Virus record (IMG/VR): IMGVR_UViG_2061766007_001503
Source of the DNA: an uncultured virus (IMG/VR IMGVR_UViG_2061766007_001503)
Taxonomy: Duplodnaviria; Heunggongvirae; Uroviricota; Caudoviricetes
Reading direction: 5' to 3' (one strand)
DNA length: 64,000 bases
Under the pieces are notes generated by a model, which was given only the letters and a program-made list of their open reading frames with translations, ran no database searches and had not been told where the DNA came from. A program made the translations under genes and the position numbers. Below, one piece after another: positions 2,856 through 17,974 of the stretch. Position 1 is the first letter of the stretch, and each line of letters begins with the position of its first letter.

Positions 2856-4692
2856 TTAATCTGTTGTTTTGGTGTATTGAAGCGTTAAATAGTACTGAAA
2901 TGAGGTAGACCTATATGATGTTCCAACACTGATGTTTACATATGTCGCATCCATATATACCAAAGTATATCTAGTTGTGTCATAACTCGTTCCCAAAATA
3001 CCAGCAGAACCAACGGAATCAACAAAACTCCCACTTGCGCTTATTAAATTCTTAATATGTTCTGGACGAGATATGGTTATAACTGCCGCTGATGTTGCCG
3101 TTCCGCTATATGTCTTCTGATAAATAGGTTTACCGTCAATCCATTTACCAATTACTTGCTCTTCTGTGGAATAAGTAATACCACGTGTAGGTGTGGACGG
3201 AAGAGGCGTGATAACATCAGCCATATCTGTAGGCAACATACTATCTGTAGAAATAACAGTATCTTCGATTGTAATTCCATTACCAGCTTGGTATGTCGTA
3301 TCTTCATCTTGAATTACATTATTACGAATATACTTCGCTCTTGGATGAGATTCTGATAAAACATATTGAGATGATCCTTTCGAATAATATATTTCATTTC
3401 CGTCAGTCCAAGTGTATTGTCCACCATAGAAATCACCAATATTTGACCAAGTTTTATTGCTCCAAGTCCCTGTTTTAACATCTAATACTTTTTGTGTGGA
3501 ATTCTCAGAATAATATATATTATCTCCATCTGTNNNNNNNNNNTACTGTTACTGAAAAGCTTCGATGGACTATTGTTCCAAGTCTTAGCAGACCAAGTGG
3601 AAGTAGCTTTATCTAATACATACTGTTTTGAACTGTTTCCATTGGAATAATAAATATTATCTCCATCTGTCCATATACTGTTCCCGTAAAAATTTGTAAG
3701 CCCTGTCCAAGTCTTAACAGACCAAGTGGAAGTGACTTTATCTAAGACATATTGATATTCCTCATACGAATAATAAATATTCGTTCCATCAGTCCAGACA
3801 TACATACCGTCAAAATTTGTAAGCCCTGTCCAAGTTTTTGTAGACCATGTAGAAGTAGCTTTGTCGAGGATATAATTATCACCCATATATGAATAATATA
3901 TATTTGTTCCATCTGTCCAGATACTGTTCCCGTAAAAATTTGTAAGCCCAGTCCAAGTTTTAGCAGACCATGTGAAAGTTTCCTTGTCCAAGACATACTG
4001 ACTTGAACCATCCGAATAATAAATGTTTTTACCATCTGTCCAGACATTTTTTCCATTAAAATTTGTAAGGCCAGTCCACGTCTTAGCTGACCATGCAGAA
4101 GTTGCTTTATTTAGGATATATTGATTTACTCCATAAGAATAATATATGTTTTCTCCGTCAGTCCAAACTGCACTGCCATCAAAATATGGAAGCCCAGTCC
4201 AAGTTTTAACAGACCAAGTAGAGGTTGATTTGTCGAGGACATACTGACTTCCAGTGTCAGAACAATAAATATCTGTGCCATCTGTCCAGACTTTTTCGCC
4301 ATTAATATTTGTAAACCCAGTCCAAGTTTTAGCAGACCAAGTACGCGTGGCTTTATCTAAAACATACTGACTTGAACCACGAGAGTAATAAATATCCGTT
4401 CCATCTGTCCAGATATAAGAACCGCCAAGATTCGTAAATCCATTCCAAACAACATTCTGCCAAGTCATGGCCGCATTGTCCAAAATAAACTGCTTTGTAG
4501 ACCAATAGGAATAATAAATATCTGTGCCATCAGTCCAGATATTTTTTACTGATAACTGTGAGTTTATATCGGACTTTGTTTTAAAATTGGACTCAGACCA
4601 TGTAGACGTCGTTTTATCAAGAACATATTGATCTGTGGCGTTAGAATAATAAATATTCGTTCCATCAGTCCAGACATACATACCGTCAAAAT
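2856..4692 (-). CDS. WTDG-repeat (beta-propeller-like) receptor-binding protein with C-terminal YTKTTD domain; 5' end lost in N-gap
   Basis: ORFs 3482..4681 and 2856..3239 join across N-gap 3534-3543 (TDGDNIYYSENSTQKVL...STDSMLPTDMA); about 41-aa repeat WTDGxNIYYS...QYVLDKxTxTWSxKTWTG. Confidence 0.75.
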
Positions 4693-10642: not shown

Positions 10643-10837
10643 TTAAAGTTGATGCCATATTTTATCAGTTCCAAGCACCCAAACTGATGAATTTTCTAAT
10701 ACTATACAAGAACTACCAGGAGACCAATCACAATTTTCTCCAGAAGGAAGTTCTTGACGATCTGCTAATGTATCACAAACAATTTCGTATACGCCATATT
10801 GGACTGTATTTCCTTGAGTTGTTATTCTATATCCCAT
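10643..10837 (-). CDS. Small hypothetical phage protein
   Basis: RBS AGAGGAG upstream; 64 aa; first gene of the operon. Confidence 0.7.
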   Translation of the reverse strand: MGYRITTQGNTVQYGVYEIVCDTLADRQELPSGENCDWSPGSSCIVLENSSVWVLGTDKIWHQL

Positions 10838-11011
10838 ATATAAGACTCCTCTCTACCTCAGAAGGTATTTTTTCTACATTTTATATAAAAATTGCTAAAT
10901 ATTAAATATTGTATTTTGCCCAAATAAAATTGGATTTCAAAATAACTAAGAAGGCTGCGGATTTGAGTTTACGATTCTCCCGGCCAGCATCGCTCCGAGC
11001 AGCCTTACGAA

Positions 11012-11047
11012 AAAAGTGGGAGGTCATAAAAAACCTCCCACTAAAAA
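11012..11047. terminator. Bidirectional intrinsic terminator ending the tRNA operon
   Basis: AAAAAGTGGGAGGT-cataaaaa-ACCTCCCACTAAAAA. Confidence 0.7.
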
Positions 11048-11089
11048 AGAAGCCCAAGACCGAAAACAATTTCGTCCCTGAACTCCTAA

Positions 11090-11172
11090 CGCCGACACCG
11101 CGACTCGAACGCAGACAGCCAAAAGACTGGATTGATTAGCAATCAATTGAGATACCTTTACTCCATATCGGC
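11090..11172 (-). tRNA. tRNA-Ser(GCT)
   Basis: Cloverleaf; ATTGA-TT-GCT-AA-TCAAT; long variable arm; TTCGAGT T-loop. Confidence 0.9.
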
Positions 11173-11188
11173 ACATTATTTACTTGAA

Positions 11189-11260
11189 AGCCGGTAGTGG
11201 GACTCGGACCCACATCAGCGGTTTGGAAGACCACGGTGCTAACCATTACACCATACCGAC
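11189..11260 (-). tRNA. tRNA-Gly(TCC)
   Basis: GTCGGTA/TACCGGC acceptor; GTGGT-CT-TCC-AA-ACCGC. Confidence 0.9.
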
Positions 11261-11264
11261 ATAG

Positions 11265-11345
11265 TACAGGCGGAGGGACTCGAACCCTCACCTCTAGGAG
11301 GACAGATCCTTAGTCTGCTGCGTAAACCAGTTCCGCCACGCCTGC
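11265..11345 (-). tRNA. tRNA-Leu(AAG)
   Basis: GCAGA-CT-AAG-GA-TCTGT; long variable arm. Confidence 0.9.
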
Positions 11346-11351
11346 ATACAA

Positions 11352-11431
11352 TATACCCGAAGAGATTCGAACTCTTACGCCGAAGCAACAGGGTTTGAGC
11401 CTATCGTGTCTACCATTTTCACCACGGGTAC
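11352..11431 (-). tRNA. tRNA-Leu(CAA)
   Basis: ATAGG-CT-CAA-AC-CCTGT; long variable arm. Confidence 0.9.
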
Positions 11432-11434
11432 ATA

Positions 11435-11509
11435 AGATGATGACAGGATTCGAACCTGTGATAGCAGAGTTGCAGTCTGCCGTCTTAAGCCAGACTTGAC
11501 TACATCATC
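11435..11509 (-). tRNA. tRNA-Cys(GCA)
   Basis: GATGATG/CATCATC acceptor; GCAGA-CT-GCA-AC-TCTGC. Confidence 0.9.
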
Positions 11510-11520
11510 ATCATCTAGTA

Positions 11521-11608
11521 CGCGGGGAGTAGGATTCGAACCCACGGGCCCATTCCTGGACCAGCGGTTTTCAAGACCGCCGCCTTAAGCCAACTCGGCC
11601 ATCCCCGC
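11521..11608 (-). tRNA. tRNA-Ser(TGA)
   Basis: GCGGT-CT-TGA-AA-ACCGC; long variable arm. Confidence 0.92.
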
Positions 11609-11609
11609 A

Positions 11610-11909
11610 TTACTTACTTTTCATACATTTATACCAATATCTATATAAATCATCTTCATTATAACAATGACAATGCGTTGCATAATAATCGGGATTCTCA
11701 TGATACTGTTTAAGAGCATCTTCCCAAGACCAATAACTCTTAAAGTCATGAATATTCCAACTTTCATAAAATTTCTTTTTAGCATTTCCTTTAAGGGGGA
11801 GCTCTTCAATATCAAGATTTCTCACTCTTCGACTTGCTTGCTTTTTACCAAAAGACGCATATTTTGCGTTGTCGGTAATCACAGGGTGCTTACGATAACT
11901 CCTTGACAT
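11610..11909 (-). CDS. Hypothetical basic protein within tRNA cluster
   Basis: MSRSYRKHP...; strong RBS AAGGAGGA. Confidence 0.8.
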   Translation of the reverse strand: MSRSYRKHPVITDNAKYASFGKKQASRRVRNLDIEELPLKGNAKKKFYESWNIHDFKSYWSWEDALKQYHENPDYYATHCHCYNEDDLYRYWYKCMKSK

Positions 11910-11939
11910 TATGTTATCCTCCTTTTCTATTGTTTAGCG

Positions 11940-12023
11940 TGGGCGAAGAGGGAGTCGAACCCACTCGAACCCGAAGATAGCAGATTTACAGTCTGCCCAG
12001 CCTCCGTAACCGCTTACTCGCCC
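11940..12023 (-). tRNA. tRNA-Tyr(GTA)
   Basis: GCAGA-CT-GTA-AA-TCTGC; long variable arm; atypical D arm. Confidence 0.85.
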
Positions 12024-12210
12024 AAAATAAAAATGGCTATTTACTAGTCAAGAAGGTTGCCAACCTAATAGGAAGAAATTGTGGTGTCTTACTATCATCA
12101 TCCAACCTCCTGTTAACCAACCCCAGGTAGGCATGTTATTCTCGTATTAAACATTCTACGCTACTTTTTCTAGCTAAAGTAGTAAAACATTTAGGTGACT
12201 AACCCCAAAG

Positions 12211-12294
12211 TGCTGATGGTCGGACTTGAACCGACATGGGGTTGCCCCCGAGGGATTTTAAGTCCCTTGTGTCTACCATTTCCACCACACCAGC
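12211..12294 (-). tRNA. tRNA-Leu(TAA)
   Basis: AGGGA-CT-TAA-AA-TCCCT; long variable arm. Confidence 0.92.
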
Positions 12295-12348
12295 AGATCC
12301 GTAGGTCTGAGCACGCCAGCCGCAGACCTACAATTTAATATACAAGTC

Positions 12349-12715
12349 GCGAACAAGGGTTACTTTCTTTAATATAGGCGGGAAAAATAACCGAACCCAC
12401 CGCTTGCAAGCTACCTTTTCATTTTGTACGAAGTGAAAACAGTTAAAAGACTTCGACTGAAGTTATAGCACTTATCAGTTAGGCATTGGTATGCTTGTCT
12501 TAAAGGGAAAGCTCCAACATCGAAAACCTCGCCGTATTTGTTGCTGGTGTTAGAGTGGCGTTTCACCCGAGATTCCGTTGTTTCCTTCATTTTAATTCGT
12601 TAGCAAAAAGGGAACCTCACCAAAAAGCGTGGAAACTGCGTTTCTTAATCTTATTGGCACGCAAGGGCCGCACCGGTACAGTCGTCGCTCACGAGGCATC
12701 TACTAACTCGTTCGC
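12349..12715 (-). ncRNA. Candidate structured ncRNA of about 370 nt, class unknown
   Basis: No credible ORF; ends pair as GCGAACGAG/CTTGTTCGC (G-U only on minus strand); lies between tRNAs. Confidence 0.4.
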
Positions 12716-12731
12716 ATTGATTACTCTTGTT

Positions 12732-12803
12732 CAGGCGATAAAGGATTTGAACCTTTGTTTCTCCGATCTTCCTCGAAGCGTTCTACCACTAAACTAATCG
12801 CAA
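12732..12803 (-). tRNA. Degenerate tRNA-like gene (GAA in an abnormal anticodon loop)
   Basis: Good D arm (GTTT-AGTGGTA-GAAC) and T arm (AAAGG-TTCAAAT-CCTTT); anticodon loop AGGAAGAT lacks U33; acceptor end mismatched. Confidence 0.5.
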
Positions 12804-12893
12804 GGAGCATCTCCGCACAGTAATGTTAGTAGACCGCGGGGCTTCATTCCCACCTGTCATATCCTGTTAATTCAGGCATTACTCCGGTTGAAA

Positions 12894-12966
12894 TAGTGAC
12901 TATAAGACTTGCACTTATGGCCTTTCCCGTATCAGAGGAATGCTCTACTAACTGAGCTAAGTCACT
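12894..12966 (-). tRNA. tRNA-Ile(GAT)
   Basis: AGTGACT/AGTCACT acceptor; TTCCT-CT-GAT-AC-GGGAA; variant T-loop TGCAAGT. Confidence 0.85.
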
Positions 12967-12971
12967 ATAAC

Positions 12972-13042
12972 TAGGCACTAGGGTTGACTATTTTTCACTC
13001 AAATAGAAAATTATCTTGTAATAGTTTTGCTGCATGTGCCTA
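12972..13042 (-). ncRNA. Short RCAGCAA-motif stem RNA (Y-RNA-like end module), copy 1
   Basis: TAGGCAC-ATGCAGCAA...GTGCCTA terminal stem. Confidence 0.45.
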
Positions 13043-13065
13043 TTGTTAAAATAAATAAAATAAAC

Positions 13066-13126
13066 TAGACGCTTATTGTTGAAAACTTTATCAATATAAG
13101 TTATAAGATTTGCTGTTACGCGTCTA
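13066..13126 (-). ncRNA. Short RCAGCAA-motif stem RNA, copy 2
   Basis: TAGACGC-GTAACAGCAA...GCGTCTA terminal stem. Confidence 0.45.
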
Positions 13127-13332
13127 AATAATCTAATAGCTATTAACCTGGCGAGGGAGGTTGCTACCCTAGTTCTTTCTTCGATCTCCGCGGCGCAAAG
13201 AACCAATGTGCCTTAGTACTAAGGGGGTATTATAAGTGCTCGGTTAACCTCTCACGGCATAGGGTTTATTTGTTTACTTCCCAACTAGGAAGCCTGTTTT
13301 GNNNNNNNNNNNNNNNNNNNNNNNNNNNNNNN

Positions 13333-13363
13333 GTCCGGTGCATAACCGATTTGCTACAAGCGC
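13333..13363 (-). tRNA. tRNA 5' half, rest in N-gap (possibly Arg)
   Basis: GCGCTTG-TA-GCAAATCGGTTATGC-A-CCGGAC; resembles the 5' half of tRNA-Arg at 15207. Confidence 0.6.
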
Positions 13364-13372
13364 TGGATTAGA

Positions 13373-13504
13373 TTACTTGCTTTCAGCCTTACGAACCTCT
13401 CGTTTAAGTCTACGAACAACACCACCACACTTAATATTTTTTACACAATTCTCAAGTCTTGCAAGACGATCTTTCTTCAGCGCTAACTTCTGTTCAAAAG
13501 TCAT
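13373..13504 (-). CDS. Small basic hypothetical protein (43 aa)
   Basis: MTFEQKLALKKDRLARLENCVKNIKCGGVVRRLKREVRKAESK*; RBS and promoter upstream. Confidence 0.65.
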   Translation of the reverse strand: MTFEQKLALKKDRLARLENCVKNIKCGGVVRRLKREVRKAESK

Positions 13505-13665
13505 TTTCTTAATTTCCTTTCCTTAACTTTCTATATATATTATATCAAAAATTTTGATTAATTTCAACGGGGCGCCCTAGGCGGTAATGCCTATTCACAA
13601 TTATTAAAAGCGCCCCTTTTTATATTATAATCTAGGCTTGTCTTATCCCGCGCCTAGTCCGGGGA

Positions 13666-13736
13666 TAGCAGGTACCAGATTCGAACTGGTGTCTTCTGCG
13701 TATGAGGCAGACAAGGATCCACTCCTCCAACCCGCG
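13666..13736 (-). tRNA. tRNA-Met(CAT), initiator-like
   Basis: TCTGC-CT-CAT-AC-GCAGA; C1:U72 mismatch. Confidence 0.8.
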
Positions 13737-13915
13737 TTAAATCAAATATAATTTAGGCTCTCTTTTTTGTAGGGAAGCTCTTTTCATTGTATCCTACATT
13801 TTGCTGCAGACCGCTTCGACTTTTTTATCTTAACCTCGCCTCGATAAGGGGAGTCTATATCTCCCGAAAGCCATTCTTAGACCGCGTACTCTAAGTCCGT
13901 CTTATTATATTTGAG

Positions 13916-13987
13916 TACTGCCTGCGGGTGCTGACCCCGCCTGATAGCCTTGAAAGGGCTACTTCTGAACCGCTCGAATAAGGCAGC
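13916..13987 (-). tRNA. tRNA-Glu(TTC)
   Basis: TAGCC-CT-TTC-AA-GGCTA; variant T-loop GTCAGCA. Confidence 0.8.
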
Positions 13988-14243
13988 TAAATGGTAGTTT
14001 ATCTGCCTGTTTTGATTATACTCGTCTCTGCCACCATAAACTACCAAATCCTGTTTTGACGAGTCCACGATAGCCTGCCGATGCGGATCGACCACCTTCC
14101 GCTCTTTCCAGTGTAAGATTTCTCTTACTTTTGGGGAGATTAGGGTCATTTTCTCTAATCGGTTATCTACCCTTTGTGGTGAAATAAAATTGCTTTCATC
14201 TTCATGACTTCTCTTCCCGGCATCTTGCCTGCAATTTTATTAG

Positions 14244-14315
14244 TGACTCAACCAGGAATCGAACCTAGGTCTCTGCCGTGAGAGGGCAGCGTCTTAACCT
14301 CTTGACTACTGAGCC
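14244..14315 (-). tRNA. tRNA-Glu(CTC)
   Basis: CTGCC-CT-CTC-AC-GGCAG. Confidence 0.9.
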
Positions 14316-14530
14316 ATAGGGAGGAAGAGTTGTAGTTTTCTACCTCTTTCTACAAGGATTTACGGCTTTTANNNNNNNNNNNNNNNNNNNNNNTTATAGT
14401 ATACGAGTAATCAACTTACAATGGAAACTCGGTTCTTTTAAGGTGGTTTTCTCCACCAAGATTATTTATTATTTCCTTGACTTTCTATATATATTATATC
14501 AAAAATTTTTATAAAAATCAAATGGAAATA

Positions 14531-14881
14531 TTATCTGTAGCCCACCTTGTCATACATCTGGGCATAACTCTTCACACGATCATGTGTAAGAATACCCATA
14601 AGACGCTCATTGTCACCTTCCTCTTTAATGAGAATACGAGCTGAGTCAGTAGACACAGAACCTCTCCCGCGGGGACGGGTAAGTAACTTTGCACATTTCT
14701 CAATGCGCGCCATATCAGTCGTGTTTAACTCCATGCGGCCTCCGCCGCCAATAATAATGAAGATAGGTTTGCCATTCTTAAACACAGGTTTAGCATCAAG
14801 GATCTTCCCGCACCAGTCAATATGGTACTGATCCTGGACATCTGTTACAATTAAATGACTAAAGATTTTAACTTCTTCCAT
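14531..14881 (-). CDS. Hypothetical protein
   Basis: 116-aa ORF with RBS GAGGGG. Confidence 0.75.
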   Translation of the reverse strand: MEEVKIFSHLIVTDVQDQYHIDWCGKILDAKPVFKNGKPIFIIIGGGGRMELNTTDMARIEKCAKLLTRPRGRGSVSTDSARILIKEEGDNERLMGILTHDRVKSYAQMYDKVGYR

Positions 14882-15070
14882 TTATTTCCCCTCTTGTAAA
14901 GAATTAAAGAAATTTGCAACATCATCACTAACTTTTCTAGTTTCAACAGTACTTCTTGGTGCTGGCTTAGATTGATGATAAGGGTGATGTTCCTTCCAAC
15001 ATTCGAGGAAATGTTTTCTTATTGTTTCTTCTTTATAAAATTCTTGTCCGCAAGTAGGGCATATAAACAA
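14882..15070 (-). CDS. Small C2H2-like zinc-finger protein
   Basis: CPTCGQEF...RKHFLECWKEHH. Confidence 0.65.
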   Translation of the reverse strand: MFICPTCGQEFYKEETIRKHFLECWKEHHPYHQSKPAPRSTVETRKVSDDVANFFNSLQEGK

Positions 15071-15170
15071 TTTAATTTCCTCNNNNNNNNNNNNNNNNNN
15101 NNNNNNNNNNNNNNNNNNNNNNNNNNNNNNNNNNNNNNNNNNNNNNNNNNNNNNNNNNNNNNNNNNNNNN

Positions 15171-15205
15171 AAGGCACGCGCTCATCCCAGCTGAGCTACG
15201 CCAGC
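15171..15205 (-). tRNA. tRNA 5' half, anticodon T?? in N-gap
   Basis: GCTGGCG-TA-GCTC-AGCTGGGAT-GAGC-G-CGTGC-CT-T. Confidence 0.7.
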
Positions 15206-15206
15206 G

Positions 15207-15279
15207 TACAACCGGAGGGATTCGAACCCACAGTCTGCGGATTAGAAATCCGGTGCATTATCCATTATGCTACGGTTGC
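15207..15279 (-). tRNA. tRNA-Arg(TCT)
   Basis: CCGGA-TT-TCT-AA-TCCGC; TTCGAAT T-loop. Confidence 0.88.
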
Positions 15280-15283
15280 ATTT

Positions 15284-15347
15284 AGGATTGCTTTAGTCTC
15301 ACGCTCGTACAATCCTGCCGATATACCTATCGGACGCCGCCGCATCT
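15284..15347 (-). ncRNA. tRNA-leader RNA motif, copy 1
   Basis: AGATGCGGCGGCGT, hairpin, then AGGATTG-TAC...CAATCCT ending 4 nt before tRNA-Arg. Confidence 0.5.
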
Positions 15348-15597
15348 TATTATTTTTCATCTGCCCTTTTGCGGGGAGCAGGCGCCTGCGTTAAAGTCAT
15401 GAGGCTGCGACTATTGGGGCGTTCTCCTTGCAACTCAAACATTTACCACAGGATTCGTACCCGTCACCCCTTATAATTGATAGATTTTCGGCAGACGCTC
15501 AACCCTGTCTATCTCAGGACCACCCAGCATCTTCATACCCCGCCCGAGCATCTTTTGAGTATGACGCTCGTGTTAGCCGCCATCTGCCTAGCCTTTC

Positions 15598-15824
15598 GAC
15601 TTGTTAGTATTTTATTTTGGAAAGGGAATCTAACCTAACCCCTTTTCGTTTGCAAACTAGCTTACTTCATTTCGAGGCTTCAGGCGACCACCTCAGGTAG
15701 CAACATAGCTTAATTAGACCTACCGCATTTTCTTGGCATCTTTTTGCCCTTCTCGTTGGCGGGTGAGGAAAGATAATGCTCTGCAATCTCCCTTACGGTT
15801 AGCTCTGAGACACGCTAACAAGTC
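15598..15824 (-). ncRNA. Candidate structured ncRNA of about 230 nt
   Basis: Perfect 10-bp long-range stem GACTTGTTAG/CTAACAAGTC inside about 600 nt of ORF-free DNA between tRNAs. Confidence 0.4.
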
Positions 15825-15889
15825 ACTGGTCTGTTCCTATTCAACTCCAGCATCAAGTCACTCTAACGCTTTATTTGCCTTAGAGAACG

Positions 15890-16704
15890 CGGGAAGACAG
15901 GGACTTGAACCCCGATACTACGGTTAATGGATAAATGAGTACTGACCTCAAATCTTTGACCATTCTTCATTAGTGTAATTATTAATATCTGTCTTTTTTC
16001 GAGGAAGATGTTCTGCGTCACACCATTTACGAATTGCATTATCTGTCACACCATATCGTGATGCAATTTGAGTAAAAGACATTGTTCTAATTAATTGTTT
16101 TAGTTCCTCACGAGAAGGTCTTTCAGCCTTTCTAGTAGCTTGTCTATGGCATTCTTCACATAATCCTGTTATTGTTTTACCACTTAATTGTTTACCACAA
16201 TTATTACAATAATATATTGTTTTTTCTAAAAGTTTTTCTTTTTCTTCTCTTAATTGATTTGCAATATCTTCATTATAATTTTGTTTTTCCCACAATTCTT
16301 CTTCAGAATAAAGATTGTTATGTATTTCTCTATGACAATTAGCACATACTAAAACACATTTCTTTATTTCTGCTAAATCCTTTTCCAAATCATGGCAAGT
16401 TCCATTTTGAGATATAGCATAATCTTTTTCTTCAGGATTAATATGATGAAATTCTAATGCATCAGGAATTTTATCATATCCGCATAAACAACATCTACTT
16501 CCTAAAACTTTAATTAAATTTTGCTTTCTTCTTCTTCTAAAATTACTAACATCTAAAGCAGATCCCATAGTTAAAAACTCCTTTCTTTTTCTTACTATAC
16601 TTAAGTTTTTAACTATTTTAATTAATCACTAATGTCCTATGTTCAATATTTTCTTTAAACTATTATCCCACAGCCGCATGTCCTAACCATTGGACGATCA
16701 ACCC
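15890..16704 (-). tRNA. tRNA-Asn(GTT) split in the anticodon: exon 1 16671-16704, exon 2 15890-15927, 743-nt insert
   Basis: Joined halves give GGGTTGA-TC-GTCC-AATGGTTA-GGAC-A-TGCGG-CT-G|TT-AA-CCGTA-GTAT-CGGGG-TTCAAGT-CCCTG-TCTTCCC-G. Confidence 0.85.
15948..16568 (-). CDS. HNH endonuclease with zinc finger and C-terminal HTH, encoded inside tRNA-Asn
   Basis: CCLCGY...LEFHHINP...VCANCHREIH; CNNC...CEEC; SFTQIASRYGVTDNAIRKW. Confidence 0.85.
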   Translation of the reverse strand: MGSALDVSNFRRRRKQNLIKVLGSRCCLCGYDKIPDALEFHHINPEEKDYAISQNGTCHDLEKDLAEIKKCVLVCANCHREIHNNLYSEEELWEKQNYNEDIANQLREEKEKLLEKTIYYCNNCGKQLSGKTITGLCEECHRQATRKAERPSREELKQLIRTMSFTQIASRYGVTDNAIRKWCDAEHLPRKKTDINNYTNEEWSKI

Positions 16705-16849
16705 AAAATTATAACCAACAGTACAAGCCATCATCTTGCCAAATGCGGCATCCACCCCTCGGAAGCAGTGAGCGTAGCTGATGAGGCTACGGCTTCCAAC
16801 CACTGCTTGCGGATTCGAACCACTACACTACATTCCTGCTAATTATAAG

Positions 16850-16923
16850 CGATGACAGAGGGACTTGAACCCTCGACCTCTAGCGTGACAGGCTAGCGTT
16901 CTAACCAACTGAACTATGCCACC
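16850..16923 (-). tRNA. tRNA-Asp(GTC)
   Basis: CTAGC-CT-GTC-AC-GCTAG; canonical arms. Confidence 0.93.
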
Positions 16924-16927
16924 AATG

Positions 16928-16984
16928 GGTGCGATTTTGATACCGGTGTACGCACCGCCCCTTATGGGGGACACCGCCGCATCT
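16928..16984 (-). ncRNA. tRNA-leader RNA motif, copy 2
   Basis: AGATGCGGCGGTGT, hairpin, then GGTGCG-TAC...CGCACC ending 4 nt before tRNA-Asp. Confidence 0.5.
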
Positions 16985-17103
16985 CTTATTTATACTCTCT
17001 CAGCGTGGGGAGTAAGAGGGGCTTCCTTCAGGAAACTTGAGCATTGCCGAGCCCTCAGCTGGTGCCAGCCAACTCCCGAGTTTGAGCGTCCTCAAAAGTG
17101 AGC

Positions 17104-17262
17104 AGTTCTGAAATCAAGTTTCCATAGCAACCATAACCAACTTTTAGATGTTCTAACCGATTATAAACTACTCGCTCTTTTTAAGAGCAAGAGAGGATTT
17201 GAACCTCTTCCTTTCTAATCATCAGAAATGGTCACTTATTAATTTTTGCTATACTCAGAACT
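17104..17262 (-). ncRNA. YrlA-like Y RNA (circularly permuted tRNA-like domain on a long stem)
   Basis: TTAGA-AAGGA-[AGAGG TTCAAAT CCTCT]-[CTTGCTC TTAAAAA GAGCGAG]-TA-[GTTT ATAATCGGTTA GAAC]-A-TCTAA, flanked by GTGACCAT/ATGGTTGC and AGTTCTGA/TCAGAACT stems. Confidence 0.75.
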
Positions 17263-17674
17263 AATCAAAACTGAGTACTTGCAAGTATATAATAAGAAGT
17301 GCAAGCAACCTAAAAGGGAATGACGGAGCATTTCACGCCCGCACTTTTATTACCGAATAAAGCAAGTTTTTTAATGGGAAAACTTGCAAAACCGAGTAGA
17401 ATTAAATGCAGGAATCGCTTCCCGCCCCGTTACTCGTTGAACGAGAAAGTCACCCCCAGAGGCTAGGGGACAGCCACAAAGCTTACTGCGAAGTTACAAA
17501 ATGTAAGAAATAAGGTTTTCCTTTTTGAACTTTCTTACATATTTATTATATCATATTTTTTTGATAAAATCAAATGGTTGATATTTTATCTAAAAATAAG
17601 ATATACACACTTAAAAACCGCTGACCAACTTTTTTTCTTTCTTTATCTTATGAAANNNNNNNNNNNNNTAAAAA

Positions 17675-17974
17675 TCAAATAAAGAACTTATGATCACGAG
17701 CATACTTATTAATGTAGAGTACAAAAGCGTGCATCTTGTGATAGTTCTCTGGCTTCCAACTATAAAGAAGCGTCTTACCGTCAAAAGAAATCTGATCAGG
17801 GCTGTATTTATCTACTAACCATTGGATATAATCGACGGGCGCCATACCGAGCATACGAGCTGGAACCCACCACATACCGGCTAGACCTGCGAGATCGGAC
17901 ACATCGTTACAGTGCCACCCACTCACACTTTCCCACTCTGTATATTTTAAGATTGCTTTCTGCGCCCTTGCCAT
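17675..17974 (-). CDS. Hypothetical protein
   Basis: 99-aa ORF. Confidence 0.7.
   Translation of the reverse strand: MARAQKAILKYTEWESVSGWHCNDVSDLAGLAGMWWVPARMLGMAPVDYIQWLVDKYSPDQISFDGKTLLYSWKPENYHKMHAFVLYINKYARDHKFFI

Follow-up and report, generated by a model that had tools for sequence, protein, structure and literature searches.

A structured motif ending four nucleotides before tRNA genes in a rumen phage: a candidate 3′-terminal module of non-coding RNA

A 64,000-nt stretch of DNA from an uncultured tailed phage (IMG/VR record IMGVR_UViG_2061766007_001503; the whole stretch is referred to as the window) carries an array of transfer RNA (tRNA) genes in which a small structured RNA motif occurs twice, once before tRNA-Arg and once before tRNA-Asp. 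The explanation towards which we lean is that the motif is a portable, structured 3′-terminal module of upstream non-coding RNA in the phage tRNA operon, which would be released by ribonuclease P (RNase P). An earlier note on this DNA had proposed an unrecognised ribozyme, or a processing or protective element, acting at tRNA 5′ leaders. The motif belongs to no Rfam family and is tied to tRNA 5′ ends, and a protective or processing role is its best reading, but it more likely serves the upstream RNA, as its 3′ end, than the tRNA.

Layout and Homology of the Two Copies

Each copy consists of a conserved head, a middle hairpin, a single C and a terminal stem, followed by a short leader and a tRNA gene. 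The features are listed below; L149 is a locus of a related phage that holds an ortholog of copy 1.

15334..15347, minus strand: copy 1, conserved head AGAUGCGRCGGYGU (sequence and 14-mer count)
15318..15333, minus strand: copy 1, middle hairpin CCGATA/TATCGG, with an A-U to G-C compensatory change in the L149 ortholog
15317, minus strand: copy 1, single C between middle hairpin and terminal stem
15284..15316, minus strand: copy 1, terminal stem AGGATTG/CAATCCT, 7 bp, 19-nt loop with a UAC start and an A-rich end
15280..15283, minus strand: copy 1, leader of 4 unpaired nt, last base U; presumed RNase P site at 15280/15279
15206..15279, minus strand: tRNA-Arg(TCT), 3′ of copy 1 (tRNA scan)
15361..15381, minus strand: upstream hairpin before copy 1, 6 bp, reaching past the limits given in the earlier note
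15374-15370, minus strand: upstream loop YCGCA, able to pair with the head segment UGCGR (15344-15340); in L149 this pairing shows a compensatory change, C-G to U-A
16971..16984, minus strand: copy 2, conserved head (sequence, 14-mer count and covariance model)
16958..16970, minus strand: copy 2, middle hairpin CCCC/GGGG
16957, minus strand: copy 2, single C between middle hairpin and terminal stem
16928..16956, minus strand: copy 2, terminal stem GGTGCG/CGCACC, 6 bp, whose loop can pair over 6 bp with the head
16924..16927, minus strand: copy 2, leader of 4 nt, last base U
16849..16923, minus strand: tRNA-Asp(GTC), 3′ of copy 2 (tRNA scan)
16993..17014, minus strand: hairpin before copy 2 with CGC in its loop, a possible counterpart of 15361-15381 with another pairing register to the head

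All parts described in the earlier note were found in the sequence in the layout given there, and each copy ends 4 nt before its tRNA (Arg at 15279, Asp at 16923). The statement that the stems differ while the structure is kept was also borne out: both stems are replaced between copies 1 and 2, with pairing retained.

In the 64 kb, the head 14-mer occurs in exact form twice, once in each copy. Among 2,300 pairs of tRNA leaders, each pair taken within one locus of a related phage, 3 had a GC-containing 14-mer in common at no more than one mismatch; apart from the pair of copies 1 and 2, these were tRNA-like fragments. With a covariance model trained on copy 1 and the L149 ortholog only, copy 2 was the top non-training match in 1,151,637 bases, at a weak 15.9 bits (rough E 0.68); the same model gave it an E of 0.0048 in an 8-kb search. 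Folding z-scores were modest, at −2.7 for copy 1 and −0.4 for copy 2. Judged from their sequences, the two copies are real and homologous.

Fold of the Motif

Comparison of the copies indicates that the middle hairpin and the terminal stem are secure, because both are replaced wholesale between copies 1 and 2 and because the middle hairpin changes from A-U to G-C in L149. The 5′ side of this last change was also seen at 15328 in sequencing runs X4 and X6. Between copy 1 and L149, two compensatory change pairs were found, and the remaining changes fall in unpaired positions. An alignment of two sequences had 52 of 52 cells paired with 2 compensatory changes, which is anecdotal, as 124 of 500 shuffles scored as well.

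For the head, three pairings were predicted. The first is a 5-bp hairpin formed by the head and the next C, with a GRCG loop, seen in copy 1, copy 2 and the L149 copy alike; its pair probability under nested folding was 0.74–0.92 for the copy-1 type and 0.22 for copy 2, and its energy was −5.6, −5.6 and −3.0 kcal/mol for copy 1, L149 and copy 2, respectively. The second joins the head to the terminal loop. It spans 3 bp in the copy-1 type but 6 bp (CGGTGT/ACACCG) in copy 2, with duplex estimates, in the same order, of −3.4, −2.8 and −9.1 kcal/mol; within its YGU/ACR segment, a C-G pair of copy 1 is U-A in copy 2. In the third, the loop of a hairpin lying 14–34 nt upstream pairs over 5 bp with the head (−10.7, −8.7 and −7.2 kcal/mol), and a C-G to U-A change separates the window from L149. 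The similar upstream hairpin of copy 2 pairs with the head in another register only.

The second and third pairings are compatible and would give a double pseudoknot of ~100 nt, while the hairpin excludes both. The pseudoknot proposed in the earlier note, between head and terminal loop, can thus form in both copies, but it is one of three competing folds.

Distribution of the Motif

Relatives were gathered through three phage proteins, and their tRNA arrays were then retrieved. The tRNA array of L149 (record G003) carries a third genomic copy, which ends 4 nt before tRNA-Gly; this ortholog of copy 1 has kept the same leader before a different downstream tRNA. All three known copies therefore end 4 nt before a tRNA, and three isotypes (Arg, Asp, Gly) are represented. 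As to the positional link to tRNAs and the covariation named in the earlier note, the three homologs all lie before tRNAs and their paired positions covary, but there are only three copies, from two phages.

The covariance model placed the motif in 1 of 48 related phage records, which derived from 50 of the 65 loci first chosen. Exact-pattern scans of IMG/VR yielded no further copy. The first returned at least 117 loci, with none carrying the structure among the matches listed; in the second, none of 25 matches was a true copy; the third yielded one true match of 32, the L149 copy, and the fourth a single match on that same contig. None of 33 matches in metagenomes and none of 26 in GTDB was a true copy. 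These scans need exact matches, so that diverged copies would escape them. BLAST against GenBank phages returned only tRNA, HNH or chance pieces.

A structural descriptor applied to 46 loci (792,866 bases) gave 21 matches, with the head only in the three known copies. A three-hairpin descriptor applied to 421 tRNA leaders found copy 2 only, copy 1 being lost to the descriptor's own G+C filter. A motif of the copy-1 type is also covered, wholly or in part, by contigs from runs X4, X5, X6 and X17. The copy count in the source phage covers the 64-kb window only. Taken by sequence, the motif family is real but rare, and its covariation rests on two lineages.

The Large RNA Ended by Copy 1

Copy 1 forms the end of a much larger conserved RNA, which fills the space between tRNA-Asn and tRNA-Arg.

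15361..15872, minus strand: uncatalogued large structured RNA, ~590 nt including the motif (5 full instances, no Rfam match)
15648..15657, minus strand: self-complementary 10-mer inside the large RNA, whose inner positions covary with the palindrome kept
15889..16704, minus strand: tRNA-Asn(GTT), anticodon split by a 743-nt insertion; its 3′ end adjoins the large RNA
15948-16568, minus strand: HNH endonuclease gene inside the tRNA-Asn insertion

The whole ~600 nt is conserved in L149. Full homologs were also found in L360 (record G035), L363 (record G038) and L407, and all five instances stand in tRNA arrays beside tRNA-Asn; in an IMG/VR scan, only L149, L360, L363 and L407 were true among 27 matches. 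RNAalifold on four homologs gave two-sided changes in 18 of 51 predicted pairs. In other relatives, one domain of the large RNA stands by itself, with two-sided changes in 7 of 12 pairs across 9 sequences. The 10-mer palindrome was perfect in seven of eight matches, in three sequence forms, and contained a G-U pair in the eighth. Consensus folding of the palindrome region gave no pairs because its flanks align poorly. No Rfam model matched the large RNA at E up to 10, either in the window or in the four homologs.

The distant homologs in L360, L363 and L407 lack the small motif and carry other hairpin modules at the end. The end module of L360 also stops 4 nt before its tRNA, and those of L363 and L407 end in a hairpin close to the tRNA. 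The end module is thus interchangeable, and the motif is one such module, reused before tRNA-Asp as copy 2.

Contigs of four sequencing runs were placed at 80% likeness; X5, X6 and X17 are metatranscriptomes, and X4 was guessed to be DNA. Because such contigs reveal neither ends nor strand nor level, and because DNA can be present in RNA libraries, they give a weak hint. An X5 contig (15740 to 15291) and an X6 contig (15872 to 15298) span the large RNA and the motif, running through the head of copy 1, and both, from two studies, stop flush inside the last stem. On the opposite side, two contigs stop at 15871/15872 (X17 starts at 15871, X6 at 15872). The X4 contigs continue beyond both stop places. 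There was no RNA cover over the HNH gene or over 16924-16975 in X5; these gaps were not used as evidence, because the insertion is absent from relatives and a gap in cover proves nothing. As a weak hint, the contigs fit a discrete RNA of ~590 nt excised between two tRNAs and argue against complete cleavage in the head.

Modules of the large RNA were also seen elsewhere. A second, partial copy lies in the window at 12370-12530 (minus strand), with a covaried form of the palindrome at 12411-12402; similar stand-alone modules occur in L332 and L337. The pseudoknot-like middle domain is found alone, as an RNA of ~130 nt, in L335:7110-7205, L336, L354, L366 and L332:17055-17150. It covaries strongly, and in the loci scanned no Rfam model matched it at gathering score.

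The Four-Nucleotide Gap and RNase P Leaders

The earlier note had treated the 4-nt spacing as special. It proved to be generic in these arrays when 421 distinct 70-nt tRNA leaders from 54 loci of related phages were analyzed. The set left out tRNAs that lie less than 80 nt after another tRNA or have no fixed start, as well as leaders containing N or T-loop-like words; the loci being related, the counts are not independent events. A strong stem ended 3, 4, 5 and 6 nt before the tRNA in 18, 24, 26 and 18 leaders, respectively. Counted per leader, a stem end 3–6 nt before the tRNA was found in 78 of 421, compared to 9 of 421 in windows shifted 70 nt upstream, while ends at 0–2 nt were found in 10 and 18 of 421, respectively.

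Position −1 was U in 314 and position −2 was A in 246 of the 421 leaders. All three copies of the motif have a short unpaired leader with U at −1, as expected of an RNase P substrate. RNase P prefers U at −1, position −4 is read by its protein, and cleavage is about 10-fold slower when a stem-loop lies 2 nt from the site (PMC10731613). Most simply, stems would stop about 3–6 nt short of tRNAs because RNase P needs a short open leader, and the gap would mark that leader.

Proposed Origin of the 3′ End

17545..17573, minus strand: sigma-70-type promoter-like site, TTGATT-17-TATAAT with an extended −10 (consensus match only)

Both copies lie on the tRNA strand of a gene-poor array, behind this one promoter-like site, and copy 1 is contiguous with the large conserved RNA. 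The site would drive a single transcript comprising copy 2, tRNA-Asp, tRNA-Asn, copy 1 and tRNA-Arg; the next site as strong, also a consensus match only, is at 14521. It is established that RNase P cuts precursors at tRNA 5′ ends, and here the host enzyme would do so with the 4 unpaired bases ending in U as its short open leader. The cut would give the upstream RNA its 3′ end. Together with the 4-nt tail, the stacked hairpins or pseudoknot may shield that end from 3′-to-5′ exonucleases. In the case of copy 1, the product would be the ~590-nt RNA between tRNA-Asn and tRNA-Arg.

Certain observations weigh against this explanation. A plain 3′ cap needs no conserved 14-mer, and the head is left unexplained. 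The RNA support comes from contigs, which do not show where an RNA ends, and a discrete RNA before copy 2 is hypothetical. Folding of copy 2 is no better than that of shuffles (z −0.4). Because only three genomic copies were found, in two phages, conserved positions are indistinguishable from recent shared ancestry. In addition, an X17 contig stops at 15343 (depth 2.5), inside the copy 1 head, and an X5 contig at 16976 (depth 8.3), inside the copy 2 head; these stops fit a cut there as well as loss of cover.

If the proposed release by RNase P is true, these gut and rumen phages would use tRNAs as punctuation that releases uncatalogued structured RNAs, and the 3–6-nt spacing rule would mark RNA 3′ ends that can be mined across phage arrays.

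Comparison with Known RNA Families

The Rfam search suggested in the earlier note left the motif unmatched both at gathering score and at E up to 10. In particular, no match to hammerhead, twister, twister-sister, pistol, hatchet or glmS was obtained at E up to 10 over 10800-17800, and short core motifs of these ribozymes were absent from the motif apart from trivial A-rich matches. The available text of a paper on permuted ribozymes (PMC10085705) contains nothing similar to the motif. The motif strings are absent from the supplements of PMC8040213 (other than files 7 and 8) and PMC10879173 (other than file 1), as far as these were available. No account of the motif or of the large RNA was found in the literature searched, which did not cover some supplementary motif lists, so that a prior unlisted description is possible.

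Theta ribozymes, to which the earlier note had drawn a parallel, resemble the motif in being small structured RNAs that abut tRNA genes of animal-gut Caudoviricetes phages (PMC10879173). They differ in lying at tRNA 3′ ends, where their cut site is, and in having an HDV fold with nested P1/P2/P3/P1.1 and a catalytic C (PMC10879173), whereas the motif lies 5′ of tRNAs and is without that fold. The parallel thus fails in both position and fold. A theta cut site lies within about 5 nt of a tRNA 3′ end, while the copies are at least 500 nt from the previous tRNA 3′ end or have none upstream. A theta descriptor, modelled on rows of the PMC10879173 supplement, gave no match in the three copies, on either strand, or in the array of the window. 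A looser one gave two matches, both in copy 2 on the antisense strand, and also matched 1 of 60 shuffles. The stricter descriptor gave 12 matches in related arrays, four of them directly after tRNAs. The theta-like candidates are L343:9750, L399:17781 and 19515, L400:17781, L349 and L356, the four directly adjacent ones following tRNA-Cys, -Gln or -Thr.

Coremin, of the exonuclease-resistant RNA class xrRNA-C, likewise begins with a short hairpin that has a loop of 4 nt, and the hairpins after it keep their structure and not their sequence (PMC10321173). Its first loop is YGAD (or YGNNAD), and a spacer of ~10 nt with CUAC precedes its second hairpin (PMC10321173), whereas in the motif the loop is GGCG or GACG and the next hairpin follows directly. 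The YGAD-plus-CUAC pattern was not found in the motif.

The large RNA resembles ROOL and GOLLD in its 500–600 nt, its covarying helices and its location in phage tRNA islands of the rumen (bioRxiv 10.1101/2024.12.08.627333). Oligomerisation has been shown for those RNAs (bioRxiv 10.1101/2024.12.08.627333), and the self-complementary segment of the large RNA hints at it here. Neither ROOL (RF03087) nor the Rfam GOLLD model matched the large RNA in the window or the four homologs at E up to 10, although RF03087 scored true ROOLs in L354, L335 and L360 at 230–307 bits. In record G035, a true ROOL lies at another place in the array that holds the large RNA, which makes the latter a separate family. 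Tentatively, and with appreciable doubt, it may be a new oligomer-forming family that involves no catalysis. The large RNA would add a third family to the ROOL and GOLLD of these arrays, and its palindrome predicts self-assembly. It gives another handle on the function of large tRNA-island RNAs.

The ROOL RNAs of related arrays are located at L354:17094-17689, L335:8963-9563 and L360:13511-14133. Phage transfer-messenger RNAs (tmRNAs) occur at L143:8342-8687, L363:18416-18763 and L337:2019-2334, and RAGATH-33 and DUF3800-XI occur in L152.

A stretch UAG-N-N-UGCA-N-N-CG in the large RNA resembles the resume region of tmRNA. The reading as a tmRNA was dropped: a tRNA-like domain is absent, neither RF00023 nor the permuted model matched, the frames after the stretch vary in length and sequence, the stretch covaries as a palindrome, and G038 has a true tmRNA as well.

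Nearest in how the motif would work are, by analogy, species I and II RNAs of phage T4, ROOL and GOLLD in tRNA islands, and MALAT1/mascRNA. In MALAT1/mascRNA, the RNase P cut at a downstream tRNA or tRNA-like unit makes the 3′ end of a long RNA, and a terminal structure protects it. That system is eukaryotic with a triple-helix cap, whereas here the setting is bacterial and phage, the structures are hairpins or a pseudoknot, and the mechanism is inferred. Phage T4 provides the precedent of non-tRNA RNAs, species I and II, made from a tRNA-cluster precursor, also with homing endonuclease genes nearby (PMC2330249). T4 belongs to a different host group and the RNA here is much larger, the comparison being one of descriptions.

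Alternative Explanations

Among the alternatives, a binding or switching element would have the head as a protein or ligand site whose alternative pairings tune folding or processing of the precursor. The head sequence is indeed kept while both stems change completely, and its three exclusive pairings are of similar estimated strength. Since GC-rich 14-mers easily find alternative partners, no riboswitch family matched, and no gene or terminator stands under its control, this model was considered rather unlikely. A new small self-cleaving ribozyme was given a low probability. It would be a double pseudoknot, in which UGCGR pairs with the upstream loop and YGU with the terminal one and the conserved CGG and C lie between, and it would cut in or near the head and part the upstream RNA from the pre-tRNA. 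Its size of 65–110 nt, its two mutually compatible pseudoknots, the fully paired though anecdotal two-sequence alignment and the YGU/ACR change between copies 1 and 2 are in line with it; theta-like elements in relatives suggest that these arrays use ribozymes, and two RNA contigs stop inside a head. These two stops fall at different head positions (5 and 9), however, and the X5 and X6 contigs read through the copy 1 head. No Rfam ribozyme matched at E up to 10, no HDV-like fold was found on the sense strand, the upstream pairing register is not kept in copy 2, and RNase P is required for the tRNA 5′ end anyway. In a bolder version, which we regard as improbable, the ~100-nt extended element from upstream hairpin to terminal stem would be a new class of double-pseudoknot self-cleaving ribozyme 5′ of tRNAs, a mirror of theta, releasing an ornate ~590-nt RNA that dimerises or oligomerises through its covarying palindrome. 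Self-cleavage of the small motif, if true, would make it a new ribozyme class.

Protection of the downstream pre-tRNA, with the motif as an xrRNA-like roadblock to a 5′-to-3′ exonuclease (RNase J in a Bacillota host), was given little weight. There is potential for a compact pseudoknot just 5′ of the tRNAs, and xrRNAs depend on pseudoknots (PMC10321173), but the coremin features are absent (the loop is GRCG and not YGAD, without ~10-nt spacer or CUAC), and in the RNA contigs the motif is continuous with the upstream RNA and not with the tRNA. The RNase J premise also presupposes a Bacillota host. It is likewise hardly probable that the motif is a functionless relic, a drifting piece of leader that was copied along with a tRNA and is constrained only to stay clear of it. 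Its rarity (1 of 48 related records, and no true copy among the pattern matches in metagenomes or GTDB) and the visible shuffling of the arrays would agree with a relic; the replacement of both stems with pairing kept, and the confinement of changes between copy 1 and L149 to two compensatory pairs and unpaired positions, would not.

The Phage and Its tRNA Array

Terminase and portal genes at 47.5-51.1 kb identify the window as part of a large tailed phage. Sequencing runs containing the stretch are labelled as bovine, sheep, goat or unspecified gut, and the source is a rumen phage. ARAGORN reported 15 tRNAs on the minus strand between 11089 and 16923; the 16th in the window, tRNA-Asn, was seen once introns were allowed.

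The two ends of the tRNA-Asn insertion (15927-16669, minus strand) are complementary, and no Rfam group I or II intron matched it. Record G001 (L332:18853-18911, minus strand) has a version of ~60 nt with the same ends and no gene, and in L149 the tRNA-Asn is intact, without the insertion. From its sequence features, the insertion looks like a mobile tRNA intron, with the splicing route unclear. Anticodon-loop insertions, short or the size of an open reading frame, were seen in more tRNA genes of relatives (L143:360-908 and 4520-4637, L149:8492-9412, L150:13990-15606). A tRNA-like gene at 12731-12804 (minus strand) has an 8-base anticodon loop and is given no assignment by ARAGORN; similar genes occur in L149 and L152.

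Between the promoter-like site and copy 2, ~500 nt (16990-17520, minus strand) are gene-free and contain tRNA-arm-like remnants and a 10-bp long-range stem around 17122-17030. The region has almost no homology in relatives and is covered by contigs of RNA run X5. The inter-tRNA spacers 10840-11090, 12295-12895, 13735-13915, 13990-14245 and 14315-14470 (minus strand) are conserved in G001, G003 or G038, show no Rfam match and are likely further structured RNAs.

A second uncatalogued leader family was observed in relatives, with the order ACCACC ... GAACUCC, hairpin and terminal stem, in which GUU of the loop can pair back with AAC. Its members are L360:12620-12712, L149:11890-11979, L332 near 12031 (minus strand), L411:14200-14288, L407:2860-2942 and L143:3850-3939, and they end within ~6 nt of Asn, Tyr, Ser, Trp or Glu tRNAs. 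The 3′ architecture of this family is like that of the motif studied here, and its sequence is unrelated.

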